NCBI GenBank assembly: GCA_017654855.1
Contig: CM030338.1
Span: 1,116,001 to 1,180,000, forward strand
Origin: Podospora anserina
Taxonomy: Eukaryota
Length of the DNA stretch: 64,000 bases
Reading direction: 5' to 3'
Shown: positions 18,862 to 27,357 of the stretch, in pieces
Numbering within the stretch: position 1 is the stretch's first letter
Layout: each line of letters opens with the position of its first letter
The notes under the pieces: generated by a model
Databases searched by the model: none
Seen by the model: the letters and a program-made list of their open reading frames with translations, nothing else
Told to the model about the DNA's origin: nothing
Position numbers and translations under genes: made by a program

Positions 18862-21800
18862 AACCCTCGGTCCAGTCACCCTAACCCTTGTTTCCACCCC
18901 AACCGAGCAACTGATGGTTCCTTCCTTCCATTTTGATCAAGAGAAATGATTGTTGCACTGGTAATTTCCTGGGAATGTGAGGATCAAAACATTACTTTTC
19001 CAGACTCTTTGAAATATTCACTTGAAGGGTAACAAGACGGCACATCTGGCTATGAGACCGACATTGTTTACTTCCTCCCTACTTTTCTCCGCCACCATGC
19101 ATTGACATCTGCTATTTCGCATCTTGAAAATGATACAGAAACTCTGAGCTCGGGATACTACAGTTACGTTACCAGTGATTTTCACATCATTTGTCACCAA
19201 TTGCTTGCGATCTCGTTTCCGAGGGACGGCTCGACTTGCTCGGCACCAGAAACCACACCCTGTCTGCACGATGTTATTCCGTTTGAACACAGCCAATAGT
19301 GCCAGAGAAGTGAAACCGATGAGCGTTCCTCGGAAAATCTTTCTCATATTGCGATATTATATTCGGGCAGCCGAGATGAACCGCCAAAACTCATCTCGTT
19401 CTTTTGAATGTGTCTTCCCTCACCACACTGGCCACATTGGCTGCCGTTCAACTTGGTCGGCCGGTCAAGTTCACCGTTAAATCCAATAAATCCACAAGAT
19501 AAGCGAGCCGTTGGTTACCACCCTCGTTCTCCCCAGTCAAAAGTCCTTCAACTGACACGGTGACCGGACGATTTCCGGAAGCTGCCCAGGCCAGCCACAG
19601 AGCAGGTCACCTGCCATTGCTTCTTCGGCTACAACTTGACAAGCTAGGATGACCTATCACCATGAATAACCGGTGATGAGCTTCAACTGTCCAGTCACAC
19701 ACCCTCTCGGCGCCACGAATGGCCGTCCGCCTGACTCACCGACCTCTCTCAGCAGGGGACATCATGATTTGCTCAGAACCTTGTCAGGTCTCGCCCCAGA
19801 TTCGCCCTGCGTAGGCAGCATCTTGACCCCAGTACTTTGTGTTCTGTTCCAGCAGTGCTCATCGACATCTCCGTTGGTAGGCCGCGAGATGGCAAGATAG
19901 GCCAAGTGCTAGCCAGCATCCTTCCAACAGGATCACCCCGCCCGTCTCGATGGTGCCTCGGAATGGTGCCATTACCACAGAGATTCTTTTGTCCTACTGG
20001 ACACTGATAGAAGACACGGCATCTCGCATGTATCTCGCCCACAGCTTCCACACGCTATCTTCAACCTGCCCCTTCGCCGGCCAATCGTCCATTGAACGCT
20101 CGCTAGACATTCGCTGTAACTCGTCAAACTCGTCATTGTCATGAGTAAGGGCCGGATCTAGGTTACCTTGAACTTGCAGGACACATGCCAGCGGCATCTC
20201 TGCCACTGGTTGATGTTGAAAGCTGGAACGGTGAAGCCGTTCCCTCCCGCCCGCTCTGTCTGACAGTGGTCATGTAGTATTCCCACTCCCCCGGGGCCAC
20301 TAGTCTCGAGAGTATTGTAACTGGGCATGTCACTATCATGTACCGTGCCGTCAAGTATTAGACTGCTTGAGCTGGATGCCACGGAGGCCTGTCGTTTCTT
20401 TATGGACCGCCCCCCGAGTCTCAGCCCCCCCCACCCCGCAGGTATTTACGGAGTGTTGACCACACCTTCACTGGCGGCAGACTGGCCTCACAGAGAACGG
20501 GAGGCTGGACTAGAGGTCATATTCTTCGATACAAGCTCTGATTTGCTCTGGCGAATGGTCCATGAGCATGATTCCACAAATTTCCGCAGGCTTGCCTTCG
20601 CACGCCCCCCCCGCTGGAGTTGCTACCTTGACCCCAACTTCACGCACCTTTTCAGCGCACAGCAGTGTCAGTCTAACAAGGTAGTATACGGTTATCCGGG
20701 GTGTTGTATCCCAGACTAGGCCAGTAGGAAGTCGAGATTCTGAGCAAACGAAGCAGATTGATGGATCAGCGGAACGGCGCCTATCTGTAGAAAATCAAGC
20801 GCTCTTGGAAACGGTGACCAGAAGCACGCCAACGGTTCACCGGGCAGAACTCCGTCAACTCTTACGAGCGTCAGCGACCATCAACGAGCAGCTTGATGGG
20901 CATCATTTGCTGGTGATCATTGCGTAATATCAGAACGGATTACCTGCTGAGATTGAATCTTGCGCAAGTAACCAAGGCAAAAAGCGGAGTCTTAGTTGCT
21001 TGTCACGCACATCACGGTCAAGAAGACGATCAGTCTGACACACTTTGATGAGCGATAGTGATATCTGACAGCATCTCCGTTGCGACGGTATTCTTTATAC
21101 TTGCTGGTCAGGTATTGATTGTATCCAGCGTTTTTGTTGACACACCTGCGGCTCTGGCAGTACGTGACTCTGACCACCAGGAAGAGAATACATCTGGGAA
21201 CCTCCAGACAAGACTGGAATGCGGCTGTAAAACATCTTGTAGTATATCTGACAACAGGAATCCGAAGCTACTCTCGCAGCTTGTTTGCAACGGCCAGCAT
21301 GTGTCGATGACAACAACTTGGCTGAGCAGATCCAATCTGAGTGAAGCCATCATCAACACACGCGATTTGAGCACAGTCAGTCTCCCCCATTCCACCCTTG
21401 ACAGCAGTACAACAACAAAAGCATTGTCAATAATGGAACCAAGGTGTGAACAATAATTGTGCCACCGTATCTTCCCTCTTTCTATTTATGCTTCTACTTT
21501 TTCTGCTACAATCTCTCCTTGCTGCAATGATGAACACGCTTCCACACGGAACTGGTGGAGTTTCTCTACCTTCCCCAAGTATTTCTCTCAGCTTTTGCTC
21601 AAATGTGCACATCTGGGCATCAAAGAAACGACGACAACCATCCCGCTCGGGCCCAGGGAAAAACAATGAACCAAGCTAGCCACGTAGTCCTATTTTTTAT
21701 ACTCTAGTTTTTTCTTGCTACCTGCTATTTTTGCAGTTTGGTTATACTAGGTATCCCCGCTAGGAAAAGGTTGGATGGCGGAAGCGAGTTGTGATGCCGG

Positions 21801-22055
21801 ACGGGAAGGGCCGGTTTGGATGATATGGGGAGTTTTGGTTGGGATGTTCTGCTCGGGTGTTTATACGCTCTGTGAGGGGTCATGTTGATACCAGCAGATA
21901 CCCTTGAACACATGACCATATATGTCTATCAACAACGTTTGCCGCGCGGTCTATCAACCCACAGTCTACATCCCCCATCTACCGCCTCTAGTATCTACCT
22001 AGGTACCTTGCAACCAACCCCCCCTACAGCATCTACTCCAAAGAGAGAGAAGTAT

Positions 22056-23612
22056 CTACAACCTAAACAAATCATGCCCCACCCCCCTGACCCCAACATC
22101 AACCCTAAACAACGCCCCCCCATTGACCTTGCTCTCCTCCCCCTCAGCAGCACCGTCATCTCCAGCAGTAGTAATGAACAACTCCTCGCCCACAAACTCC
22201 ACACAGGTGATGTTTCTGGTAGGCAACCTCACCTCCCCAATCAACTTCCCCTCCGGGCTCAGCTTCAAAACGCGGGACTCGCCATAGACGGCATGCCAGA
22301 TGTTACCTTCAACATCAACCCTAAACCCGTCAGGTTCACCGCTCCCGACGTGCTGGTAAAAGATGCGTTTGTTGGAGAGGGTGACGACAGAAGAAGGGGA
22401 GGGGGAGGGGTCGTAATCCCAAGCCAGGACCTCGCGCGCGTTGGAGTGGGTAAAGTACATTGTCCTCTGGTCGGGGGACCAGCCGACAGAGTTTGGGATT
22501 GTGAGGGAGGTGAGGGCGAGTTGCGGGGGGGAGGTTTGGGTGAAGCGGAGGAGGGAGCCTAAAACTGGTTAGTGCTTGGGTGGAAAGAGAGTATGGGGGA
22601 AAGTAAGTAAGTGGAGAGACAAAACTAACTGCCCAACTAAAAATGGTAAGGTAAAGAAAGGGTATTGCCCCCTCAGGCGCCGGGACGGCTCGAGAGAGAG
22701 CCGCAGGAGGAAAACCACATGGCAAGGAACTTCCGAACCCGACCTGATGGGTTTAGTTTGAGCAGTTTGCTGTACATACATGCATTTCGCATATGCAGTA
22801 GTCAACGGCCCCGGCAGGCGGCGACTCCGAGCCGCTTGCCGCGAAGGGGGAGTGGGCAGGTTATTCCTCACTTGAGGAAGAACTATGACGACGGCTGCTG
22901 CTGCTGATGACGATGATGTGTCCATCCTGTCGTTTGTCCTCTTTCCCTGGTATTCTCTTCGGTTCCCCCATTCGATCGACGCGGCAACAACGTTGAAGTC
23001 TCCCCAACCCGGGTCTGCCACGTGTACGACCGACGCTTCATGTAACTGGTCCCAGGGTCCCTGCTTGGGGAGAGGGTTTGGGTAGGGGACCAGAACCGTC
23101 GTTGATGGACCAATTCAGGGGTATCATCATGGGGATGCCATTGGGGAAGTAAACGACAAAGCAAGAAAGCAATCAAGAAAAAAACCCTTACCCTCAGGCC
23201 GGAAATCCCCCTTCCCAAAATCAGTCATGCTCCCCATCCAGAACCTCCCCTGGGGATCGACCGCCCCGTCATTGCTCCTGATCCTATCCACGCCCTCCCC
23301 CTCCATCTTGGAGATGTACTCGTACTCCCCCGTCTTCCTATCCAGGACCGCGAGCCCCTGCTTGGCTCCAATTAGGATCTTGTCCTTGGGGTCGACGCCC
23401 GCAATGTCAGCGGTGACGGTGACGGGCTCGTCGAAAGAAAGGGTGACGAGATCGGCGGGGTCGTTGCTGGAGACGGTGTGAAGCTTCTTGTTCTTGATGT
23501 CGACGAAGCGGACGGTTTGGGTGGCGGGTTCATAGTAGGGTCCTTCGCCGAGGCCGCAGTGGAGGTTAAGGTAGGGGGTTTTTACCTCCCAGACTTGGAA
23601 TTCGGAGGACAT
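22056..23612 (-). CDS. SMP-30/gluconolactonase/regucalcin family protein
   Basis: Exon 1 23612-23192 (MSSEFQ..GLGEGPYY..RSNDGAVDPQGRFWMGSM), a 633-nt intron 23191-22559 (GTAAGG..ACTAAC..TAG), exon 2 22558-22056 (GSLLRF..IPNSVGWSPD..GEPDGFRVDVEGNIW..LFITTA). The junction is in frame. Confidence 0.92.
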
Positions 23613-26600
23613 TGCGGCGGTGGGGGGTGTGAGATATGGTTTTTTTTGTAAGGTGAGGTGAGTTTGAGAATGTGAGGCAATCACCGACAGCTGAATGAGC
23701 TATGGTGGAGTCGTTCGCTGGCGGAGTATACTCACGACGTCACCACTAGCCCTGAGAGTGTGTAAAGTAGGTAGCTGTGAAAGGATGGCAACCACAACAC
23801 ACACTGGGTTGGAAAGGGTGTGTCTGATCCCGAATGTGAGGTTCAATGGTCGACAAAGCCCTCACTTCAGCGATTACCGAGAAGCAAGATACAGCAGTTG
23901 AGACAACGTGGGCCGCGGGTAAAAAGGACAATAACCAAACGATTGGAGCATATGTGTCAATTGGTAAAATATATACCTCTCCCCCTCCTACGAGCCAAGT
24001 ATCACAGTCACATACAATCTCTATAGCCATCGACTTCTATCGTGGCCGTTGTTCCCGTCTGGCGGAGTCGGCGTGCCGGAGAGGTTCTCTCGGACGTGCA
24101 CCCGCCGTTGAAATGCTGCCGGAAGACGGCCCTCAGATCCGCTACGGCCCTCTCTGGCTGCAGAGACGAGCTCACAGCCGAGAAGGTCGAGGGAAAGACG
24201 GAAAGAGACGGGGAGGGGAGAAAATAGCCGAACAACAAGAAACAGAGCTTTTGTTTCCGATATGCAACTGAGGTACAGATAGGTAGAATAGGCGTGTGGT
24301 GCAGAGCCTCGATGGGTTTTGGGTAGCACAGGTGGCACGGGAACCGGGAACCGACAGCATGGATCACAACCTGGCGCGCCAGCCTTTTTTTCCTCCCGAA
24401 CTTCATCCCGATTCATCATTGAAGAAGCATGTTGTTGCTGCACACAGCACGGATTAGTAAAGGGGACTATTTACCCCTTGTAACACCTCAGTGGGAAAAT
24501 TGCCCGAGGGGGTGACGTTGAAGCCCGAGGTGATGCCCTATTTCTTGCGCAAGCAAGCAAGCTGATGCGACAAATGTGAGAGGGATAATAAAAAGAAAAG
24601 AAAAACGCAGGAGTTCCAACAGCCCGGTTGTTGCTATCAAATCTCTCATTCACATGATGAGACCGGTGAGAAGAAAAAGGATTTGTTGCGCAGTTGTCAT
24701 CATCGGTCCTGGATTGAAGTGGGTGGTGAGCCCCCATGCCCCCGTTGTCTCTTATCCCCCCCCGCGTGTGGGTGCGCCCAAAATCAACAAGATTGGGACC
24801 CAATGAGCAAATGGGTTTGGGCTGACGAGCAACGTGTCTGTCGAACTGAAATGAGATGGCGTGAAGCTGTGCTTCAGAGTTGTGTTTTCTGACAGTTGAG
24901 TGTCTCGGGTGGTCCCTTTTTTGTATGCTCGGTCAGGTTGATTAACCTAGGTGCCACTATCTAGAGGGCAAGCCGGGCAGTCCATGGTGTTGTGTCCTGC
25001 AGATAAAGTGCAAGCTGCAAGGCCGCAAGACACATGATCGACAGCTGCTGCAGGCTGGCCGCCCCTCGGTCCCAAAGAGGCATGCACCGTTACCAAAAAT
25101 GCTCCCCAAGAACTGGCCAGCTGCCCAACCAACAGGGAGCGGAGATGTGACAAGTCATCTAGGCTCATGTATCGTGAGCTGGCAGCGCAGAAGGATGCCG
25201 GCAAAGTGGGTTGTAGAAGAGCATCATGGTCTTCGGCGCTTAAGCTTCGCACAGACGCTGCGGTTGCGCTGCCTTTTTTCACCGTCTCTTTCGGAAGAAT
25301 GGCAATTGCCGTATCCCGTTTTAGGAAGCCGGAGATTTGAGACGTGTTTTCGTTGAACACAACGTTGGTGTTGCATCAATGAGGAAGAGCGACGTTTTCG
25401 TGACCGGCCGTCCAATTTCCATCATCATCAGAAAGAAAAGAGGCACAACACAACCCCGCAAAATTATTAGTGTTGCAAGGTCCCGGTCCCCACGCGCTTC
25501 TCTGCATGCCATCTGCACATCTTCTCGACGACCAGAAGCGATATTTCATCAGGCCAACGATAATGCTCGGCTGCCAGCCGAATGTATTTTCGACAACCCT
25601 CATCTCCCGCCCTGTTTCTGCTGGCCTGATGACGATGGCGATCCACCTCACAGACGGGAGCGGCTGACGATGACCACGGTCCTGACGGGAATGTCTCAAA
25701 TAATCTCATCAGCTTGTGAGACACCTCTTCGTCTTCCTGAAGCAGGATTATCTTGAACTGAGACCTCTCCCATCGACTTCACACAGTACGTAATGCCACC
25801 ACCCATCATCATGAAAATGTCTCATTGCACTTCCGATATTATTCCTCAGTCACCAGTGTTCTTTCTTTCCACGGTTACCACCGGTTAGAACACACGCCTG
25901 ACGTGTTCTTCCAATCCTACATTTCGTCACGTCACATCTACGAGGTGGGTGTGAGATTGCCAATCTTGGAGCCGACGTCGAAGTCTTCCAGGGCCCATGC
26001 CGTGGTGACCTGTTGCCTTCACCAGTCTCGGTTCGCCTCAGGGAGCAAGCACATCTACGGTACTTCATGGCGTCGTGGTAATCAATGTGGCCAACAAATG
26101 TCGCGATGGAGAAGTCTCCGGCAACCATCATCAATGGTACCAGTACCCGCCCCGTGTTGGGGCGGCCAACCTACCCTTTCACTACCTCGATGGCCTTTAA
26201 CCCTTGTGAGGCTAGTGGGAGGTGATCAGGGACAGGGCAAATCTGCACGACAGACGAAGCGAGACCGGATATGCATGCCCTATTCCGCAAGCAGGCATAG
26301 CACTGACGTCGATGCAGCACTCTCCCACCCACCGGCCGCATGGGAAGGTCGCAGAAACCGTCGTTAGAAGCCTCACAAGAAAAACGAACATGACGATGGC
26401 ATCGCCGCCGGTTTGCTGGCATTGTCCAGCCCTAAGAAGACGAACCGGGATTCTTACTCGCCCTGCCTCGGCCTCATGGGATTTCTGCGCGTGCGTTGTG
26501 GGCTGCATTTCTGCAGGAAAGCCCAAGGTCTCTGGCACCAGTAAAACTCAGAATTGCTCAGGCATCAATGCGAGATGCAGGAGTTTCTGGATGGGGGAGC

Positions 26601-27357
26601 AGAGTCTTCGCTGACGTCCTGCATGCCCAGTCTTCAGGGGTCTCGAGGATGGCTTGCAGTATACACACATGCTTAAGAGTCTGTTGTATACCTATCGAAC
26701 CGGTCAACTCGGTCCCTATATAGCCAGTGTGTTCGGTAGGTTCGGTACCAGGCCAGCATGTATAAAGAGCCGGCAGGACCTGCTACCAGAGGATTTGGTT
26801 GTCGCGTGTCAACCGTGTCAACCCAGTTGGAGAAAAGACTGGCCTGACGTTGGAAGCATTGGAAAAGTTCCGACTGTGCCGCCCGCCTCATGCCCAATGG
26901 CTTGGGTGCTTGACTTCCAATCATCTGAAGTTCCCTGGAGATTGACAAGATGGCGTCGATCGTCGACGTTCGCAGGAAGATTTGCTCGCCTTGACAAAGC
27001 TCTGCTCTGCCACACCGGGATATTTATCAAAAAGATTACCGGTGATGCTGGCAGCAATAGATCTGAGCGGGGCTTGGCGAACCACCCAATGATGCAACCC
27101 ACTTGGCGGGGAAATTCCCCAATGGTTCTTGTCGTAATAATAAACAGCATGTGCAATTTTTATTTTTTTTAATATTTCGCGCCTTTCCCGCCGGCCACCT
27201 GGTCCTGAACTGTTGAATGTGAATGTGTGCCCGAATGGATCTCCCGTGTCAGTCATGACATGACAACATCGCGAACATGCTGGAAAGGTCTTTCTGTAAA
27301 ACTATAGCGCCACGGGGCCACGGGGGCCGCGAGGTCGTCTGTGAGTATGAGCTGGCA

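Follow-up and report, generated by a model that had tools for sequence, protein, structure and literature searches.

The window analyzed here, a 64,000-nucleotide (nt) stretch of the Podospora anserina genome (contig CM030338.1 of assembly GCA_017654855.1, positions 1,116,001 to 1,180,000), holds a minus-strand gene of two exons that a Pfam profile search places in the SMP-30/gluconolactonase/LRE-like family (SGL, PF08450). Our subject is the 633-nt intron between these exons and the splice sites that compete within it. RNA evidence was taken from Logan contigs of four runs over positions 21900 to 23900, each run belonging to a different study (X1, X7, and X14 to P1, P3, and P8; X3 to P2). The four were taken from 23 listed runs, none of them recorded as RNA and 14 presumed to be so. 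Such contigs record the presence of a sequence and not its proportion; rare variants are dropped from them, strand is invisible, and stretches without contig cover in some runs (e.g., 22838 to 23172 in X14) carry no meaning. The features on which the argument is built are the following.

23192..23612, minus strand: coding part of exon 1, with the ATG at 23612-23610, 140 codons plus 1 base; SGL profile positions 1-109, E 1.5e-23
22056..22558, minus strand: coding part of exon 2, with the stop codon at 22056-58; SGL profile positions 115-245, E 7.2e-32
22559..23191, minus strand: spliceosomal intron of 633 nt, GTAAGG ... CACTAAC ... TTTTAG; skipped in X1, X7, and X14 contigs
23186..23191, minus strand: distal 5' splice site, GAG|GTAAGG, the productive one; from sequence and RNA contigs
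22568..22574, minus strand: branch-site motif CACTAAC (CTAAC at 22572-22568), the sole CTRAY match in the intron
22624..22629, minus strand: alternative 5' splice site, GCA|GTTAGT, proximal to the acceptor at a distance of 71 nt; X3 contig
22559..22629, minus strand: nested short intron of 71 nt, sharing branch site and acceptor with the long intron; X3
22630..23191, minus strand: stretch of 562 nt retained in the alternative isoform; X3 contig
23127..23129, minus strand: premature TGA, reached 21 codons past exon 1 if the 5' part of the intron stays in the RNA
22774..22779, minus strand: donor-like motif GTATGT, present in the sequence, with no joint there in the four runs

The long intron, first proposed in a sequence-only reading of this stretch, is real. 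In three of the four runs, and hence in three studies, a contig joins 22557/8 to 23191/2 with GT..AG ends on the minus strand; these spliced joints in X1, X7, and X14 establish an RNA origin for the contigs and confirm the modeled removal of the intron. Removal of the 633 nt restores the reading frame, with SGL profile positions 1 to 109 followed by 115 to 245, and the resulting translation of 307 residues is 99% identical to a public protein of the same length, P0004 (source name Podospora comata). One base of exon 1 remains beyond its 140th codon, which makes this a phase-1 intron. In an alignment of 20 orthologues, the junction residues E140 and G141 do not vary, and no sequence carries an insertion there, the alignment being continuous across PE|GS; therefore, no exon is missing from the two-exon model. 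The public 406-residue model P0003 (source name Podospora anserina), to which the exon-2 part of our product is 100% identical, includes an additional 99-residue "exon" (23036-22740, minus strand) that has no counterpart in the 20 orthologues and no joints in the four runs. Since the orthologues have no insertion at the junction, the additional 99 residues are an annotation artifact; the 307-residue model is the supported one, and our analysis corrects the public gene model.

The GT/AG ends, the branch motif near the acceptor, and the removal from RNA are those of a U2-type (GT-AG) spliceosomal intron. The 5' splice site consensus is AG|GTAAGT, which the distal donor matches at 7 of 8 positions, the GTATGT motif at 6, and the proximal donor at 5; the acceptor TTTTAG ends at 22559. 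According to the available excerpts of PMC2441463 and PMC9801653, introns in this species have a mean length of 79 to 80 nt and a maximum of 2503 nt. Against this mean, 633 nt counts as long, as the sequence-only reading had held.

A second product was found in the fourth run. An X3 contig of 2497 nt, which has no mismatches and extends at least 255 nt to either side of the joint, connects 22557/8 to 22629/30 with GT..AG ends on the gene strand. Starting in exon 2, it skips 71 nt, reads without interruption along 22630-23191 to reach exon 1, and runs on to 820 nt past 23900. There is no branch at 23191 in X3, and this lone contig across the gene is the unproductive form. In X14, one intron contig has 22629 as its very first position, which hints weakly at the same branch. 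RNA from this gene thus contains more than one splice junction, as both the 633-nt and the 71-nt skips were found.

Retention of the 562 nt shifts the frame: translation of this form from the normal ATG yields 161 residues instead of 307, ending at the in-frame TGA at 23127-29, which the sequence-only reading had correctly located in the retained part. The frame that leads from the retained part toward exon 2 has a stop three codons before the junction, so the retained part offers no frame into exon 2. A second donor on the same acceptor, together with a premature stop, identifies an alternative 5' splice site event with an unproductive isoform. Because splicing from the proximal donor uses up the sole branch site and acceptor, no later step can rescue the transcript; the transcript with the 71-nt skip is a dead-end, premature-stop isoform. 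We also considered a stwintron, in which an internal intron interrupts a splice signal of an outer intron and two successive splicing steps are required. This was rejected: the two introns have their branch site and acceptor in common, so that removing the 71-nt intron makes the outer splice impossible and does not enable it.

The idea of competing donors and an unproductive outcome was therefore sound, but the donor that had been named, GTATGT at 22779, is not the one used; GTTAGT at 22629 is. Likewise, a CAG ending at 22744 and the 23 codons that follow it to a TGA at 22673-75 exist in the sequence, as had been noted, but the proposed use of this CAG as an acceptor was not seen. Neither donor 22779 nor acceptor 22744 has a contig joint in the four runs.

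In the reading that we prefer, to which we assign a probability of roughly two in three, this is an ordinary long U2-type intron at an ancient position, and competition between a distal and a proximal donor gives rise to an unproductive isoform. An ordinary intron would have become unusually lengthened at the phase-1 position ...F-x-P-E|G-S-L... of a fungal SMP-30/gluconolactonase-family gene. In the normal event, the strong distal donor at 23191 is joined through the only branch site (22572) to the acceptor at 22559, yielding the 307-residue enzyme. The weaker donor at 22629 would compete for the same acceptor at a distance of 71 nt, which is typical of fungal introns; whenever it wins, 562 nt are kept, the branch site and acceptor are spent, a stop is reached 21 codons on, and no enzyme can be made. 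The proximal site may be chosen because short introns are more readily recognized across the intron (intron definition). Pairing across 633 nt would usually win because the distal donor is strong, and where this long-range pairing is less efficient, the short intron would be defined. The isoform may then be a by-product or a simple route of down-tuning and not the output of a dedicated structured RNA.

It is possible that the cell exploits this choice of donor, a regulated switch resting on one run. Under such regulated unproductive splicing, which we regard as rather unlikely, the choice between 23191 and 22629 would switch the lactonase off by condition or developmental stage, through trans-acting factors, the transcription rate, or an upstream start and with no metabolite-sensing RNA, and the isoform would likely be a substrate of nonsense-mediated decay. 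The contigs speak for it insofar as the lone X3 contig carries the 71-nt skip while the main path in X1, X7, and X14 is the 633-nt skip, and the start at 22629 in X14 adds its weak hint; moreover, layout and outcome match isoforms II to IV of Neurospora crassa NCU01977, as far as the accessible part of PMC3597705 describes them. The upstream extension of the X3 contig would fit a role of the transcript start, but X1, with an even longer extension (969 nt upstream of 23900), nonetheless splices canonically. Furthermore, the shift was seen in one run only, in contigs that give no proportions, and the proximal donor is not comparable across species, as the introns are unalignable. With regard to the upstream region, X7 contigs end 7 nt past 23900 and those of X14 22 nt past it, a TATATA lies at 23975-23970, and the open frames of 23840-27169 match no Pfam family; the region from 23900 to about 24870 may represent an extended alternative leader or else a distinct, overlapping transcript.

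To place the intron in an evolutionary frame, we used a comparison set of 20 metagenome-contig loci (L001 to L020), found with the orthologue alignment, in which introns were delimited by spliced alignment. A phase-1 intron follows P-E in 19 of these 20 metagenomic fungal loci, and only L002 is without it. After copies with identical junction translations and lengths had been merged (L004 with L003, L006 and L007 with L005, L009 with L008, and L018 with L016), 14 distinct introns remained, of 64, 66, 91, 130, 137, 147, 168, 176, 178, 203, 217, 234, 241, and 438 nt, the boundaries of the L016 intron being uncertain. More than 120 nt are found in 11 of the 14, with a median of about 172 nt, and the 633 nt of the window are the length extreme of an intron site that is often long. 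A protein tree places L001, L003, L008, and L014 beside a Chaetomidium protein (support 99/97) and L005, L011, and L017 beside those named Cercophora, Lasiosphaeria, and Podospora didyma (95/88). The window protein falls in one clade with P. comata, Triangularia, Apiosordaria, and Cladorrhinum (99/96); for the P. anserina species complex, Triangularia, and Apiosordaria, protein identity is 84 to 99%. Four near-identical Chaetomiaceae-like proteins have introns of 64, 66, 168, and 176 nt, which indicates a fast turnover of intron length.

None of the 14 distinct introns has alignable similarity to the window intron; blastn returned words of 9 to 17 nt and one weak match of 33 nt at 76%. Conservation of sequence or structure in orthologous introns, which a functional RNA had led the sequence-only reading to look for, was thus not found in this set. 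To judge from these comparisons, the position of the intron is ancient, and its content appears not to be conserved at the range of the metagenomic orthologues.

The sequence-only reading had gone further and described the intron as hairpin-dense, naming five stems and a donor in or next to the fourth of them. All five stems are present. They are listed here, with no strand assigned.

23046..23093: perfect 8-bp stem CTGGTCCC/GGGACCAG with a 32-nt loop; stem search
22686..22703: 6-bp stem CGGCTC/GAGCCG with a 6-nt loop; direct reading
22742..22891: cluster of three short stems (22860-83, 22812-41, and ~22776-99); local folding scan

The description as hairpin-dense does not hold. The minimum free energy (MFE) of the whole intron on the gene strand is -201.9 against -193.5 +/- 6.8 for dinucleotide shuffles (z -1.24), and 18 of 150 shuffles are as stable; on the antisense strand, z is -1.40, and 11 of 150 are as stable. 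Smaller runs with 20 shuffles gave z scores of -1.59 and -2.01. The retained 562 nt fold at z -0.14, with 63 of 150 shuffles as stable. Stem counts (perfect pairing, loops of 3 to 40 nt, 150 shuffles) are equally ordinary: 4 stems of at least 6 bp were observed against 4.12 expected, 1 of at least 7 bp against 0.97, and 1 of at least 8 bp against 0.26, the last count being reached by 35 of the 150 shuffles. The 22 local segments of 100 nt average a z of -0.27 on the sense strand, and none falls below -1.73. Short hairpins such as these are expected by chance in a sequence of such composition.

The cluster at 22742-22891 deserves separate mention. This 150-nt stretch has a z of -2.13 on the plus strand (6 of 200 shuffles as stable) and of -1.31 on the minus strand (21 of 200); it was chosen after the scan, and its z is therefore not counted as significant. 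Its 11-bp stem at 22812-41 includes one G.U pair on the plus strand, which corresponds to an A.C mismatch on the gene strand. The GTATGT donor, supposedly sequestered there, is not masked: in a partition-function model of the pre-mRNA, the mean probability that it is unpaired, 0.43, ranks at the 58th percentile among windows of the intron. A long-range "zipper" that pairs the ends of the intron was also considered and rejected, as it does not rise above shuffles; duplexes between the region of the distal donor and the 3' part of the intron, computed with RNAduplex, were equaled by 41, 118, and 322 of 500 shuffles, the program permitting large loops and thus providing a crude test of long-range pairing.

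When 11 of the orthologous introns were folded, L014 had a z of -4.41, and the others ranged from -1.75 to +1.03. In the 176-nt L014 intron (L014:2730-2905), none of 100 shuffles is as stable, and the fold has a local hairpin ATATCGT...ACGATAT; this intron may be an inserted palindromic element.

Searches for known RNA families were likewise negative. The thiamine pyrophosphate (TPP) riboswitch belongs to what is, to our knowledge, the only riboswitch class of eukaryotes, and its aptamer (RF00059) had no match in an Rfam cmscan of 21900-23900 on both strands at E <=10. This check, which the sequence-only reading had suggested, assigned no family; it returned two chance-level matches only, to mir-320 (16.5 bits; gathering threshold, 55.5) and to BLV_package (14.8 bits; gathering threshold, 70), the latter in exon 1. 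At the gathering threshold, 11 orthologous loci gave no Rfam matches.

These results bear directly on the proposal of a structured, possibly ligand-sensing riboswitch-like RNA that masks or presents a splice site. Its appeal lies in competing 5' splice sites within the long intron of a metabolic gene, as in the fungal TPP riboswitch introns (in the accessible part of PMC3597705), and in the three short stems clustered at 22742-22891. However, neither the intron nor its retained 562 nt fold above chance, no Rfam family matches, long-range duplexes do not exceed shuffles, no conserved block other than one 8-mer exists, only L014 among the 11 orthologous introns folds clearly better than its shuffles, and the supposedly masked donor at 22779 is neither paired in the model nor used. 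We regard the proposal as close to refuted. Scarcely more probable is an on/off device in which a so far unrecognized sensor, located in the retained 562 nt or in the upstream transcript, chooses the donor; it would represent a new riboswitch-like or factor-dependent class of splicing switch, acting on a sugar-lactone gene and arranged like the TPP intron of NCU01977.

We also asked whether the intron hosts an independent RNA, be it a small nucleolar RNA (snoRNA), another intronic noncoding RNA, or an antisense transcript from the plus strand. Box C/D snoRNAs carry box C (RUGAUGA) and box D (CUGA) 60 to 150 nt apart, together with a terminal stem. The sole ATGATGA in the intron (23130) has a CTGA 5 nt after it and the next one 454 nt away (a motif scan finds CTGA at 23118 and 22676 only), and a box C/D snoRNA was rejected. 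The slightly better folding of the plus strand at 22742-22891 and the presence of intron sequence among the RNA contigs would agree with a hosted RNA, but no snoRNA or other family was found at E <=10, the box C/D spacing is unfit, and, within a given run, word depth is lower for intron contigs than for those covering the junction or the exons (29.8 versus 282.9 for the junction contig in X1, 5.6 versus 106.2 in X7, and 3.3 for a partial intron piece versus 18.2 in X14). An independent RNA is thus highly improbable.

A different kind of content would be a DNA-level element, for which one short word is a candidate.

23019..23024, no strand assigned: CACGTG palindrome in the context ACACGTGGCAGACC (23026-23013, gene strand), common to three Lasiosphaeriaceae-like introns

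CACGTG is a binding site of basic helix-loop-helix factors. Five of the 15 distinct introns contain it, with 5 copies in 3123 nt. The background is 16 copies in 75,817 nt for the loci, those in the introns being counted as well, and 7 for the 64,000-nt window; around the start codon, from about 1.6 kb on the upstream side to 2.2 kb on the downstream side, the copy in the intron is the only one. In the orthologous introns it stands at position 39 (L005), 34 (L011), 67 (L017), and 139 (L020), and four of the five introns share the longer CACGTGGC. All 8-mers common to the intron cores of L005, L011, and L017 fall within CCCACGTGGC, and the context in the window agrees with that of L005 at 11 of 11 bases.

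On this basis, a transcription factor site of the E-box type at 23019-23024 may regulate the gene and keep part of the intron in place. The loci bearing the word fall into two distinct, well-supported clades, and one such 8-mer as CACGTGGC in the window intron is held by 64 of 2000 shuffled introns (p ~0.03), a modest support. The motif was, however, noticed after the fact, and CACGTG is absent from the four Chaetomiaceae-like introns, L013, and five others. A position weight matrix derived from the L005, L011, and L017 introns does not pick the window site, 49 of 300 shuffles scoring equally, and the longest word common with all 14 introns is unremarkable (218 of 1000 shuffles). We consider such a site doubtful; CACGTG is a weak lead toward a DNA-level element, not a finding.

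Two further possibilities were examined and rejected. A stop-free frame of 181 codons runs through the intron on the minus strand (22569-23114), as long as which is found in 41 of 2000 shuffles. As a hidden exon or coding relic, it fails on composition, with a G+C content at third codon positions of 0.56 against 0.80 and 0.71 in the exons, and belongs to no Pfam family; among 1.84 billion representatives it has 2 matches, both in multiple stretches to repetitive, low-complexity proteins. As for a repeat or transposon, blastn of the intron against the 64-kb window returned the self-match and chance-level matches of at most 33 nt with E values of at least 0.003. Within the intron, a trinucleotide-rich stretch (22881-22921, with CAT/CGT/CAG runs) was skipped as a repeat in the contig mapping.

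In the surroundings, a Pfam search of 14 open frames around the gene (20321-27169) gave no families. Just downstream of the stop codon, all four RNA runs have C for G at 21946 and one base absent at 22018; these discrepancies reflect either a strain difference or a small assembly error in the window.

Several observations weigh against the view of the intron as an ordinary one. X3 assembled the unproductive form only, which is more switch-like than noise, yet this is one run. Long introns in 11 of the 14 orthologues could mean that something within them is selected, and the word CACGTGGC is common to the window intron and three related introns. In addition, one 100-nt segment (22792-22891) folds at z -3.1 on the plus strand, and the 181-codon frame is longer than in about 98% of shuffles.

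With respect to the sequence-only reading, every motif that it listed lies where it said; its observation as a whole is partly confirmed and its interpretation as a whole partly supported. It had named three outcomes that would count against it: folding no better than shuffled controls, no conservation in orthologous introns, and a single splice junction in RNA. The first is what we found, and so is the second within the metagenomic set, whereas the RNA has two junctions. The structured regulatory RNA that it proposed is not supported, with no Rfam match, folding at chance level, and no long-range pairing above shuffles. As it stands, the finding matters little: apart from correcting a public gene model, it documents one more alternative 5' splice site, leading to a premature stop, in a species with hundreds of known cases. 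Should the nearly complete change of isoform in X3 prove reproducible and condition dependent, the gene would offer a compact fungal model of splice-site competition across a long intron, laid out like the TPP riboswitch introns but with no known aptamer.

Among the closest known systems is the TPP riboswitch intron of N. crassa NCU01977 (Li and Breaker 2013, PMC3597705), which, in the accessible part of that paper, is large and lies between coding exons, as here. There too, a distal donor (S1) is productive, proximal donors (S2 to S4) give stop-containing products, and all share one 3' splice site. Unlike that intron as described there, the one studied here has no TPP aptamer or Rfam family, no significant long-range pairing of the alpha-alpha' kind, and no conserved element near the distal donor, and its host gene encodes a lactonase and is not thiamine related. 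The same excerpts cite long yeast introns in which internal pairing brings the donor and branch site together. The likeness to these is that of a long intron in a fungus whose splicing machinery favors short ones, but the P. anserina intron has no helix between its 5' and 3' parts above shuffled controls. A further likeness lies within the species itself, in which alternative 5' splice sites have been reported in 758 genes, according to the excerpts of PMC9801653; the event described here may already be among those in Table S2 of that paper. As in the fungal alternative 5' splicing and partial retention described there, two donors use one acceptor, and the longer mRNA has an early stop. Set against that catalogue, so far as these excerpts show it, our case differs in that the intron is about eight times the species mean and that the unproductive form is the sole one assembled in X3.

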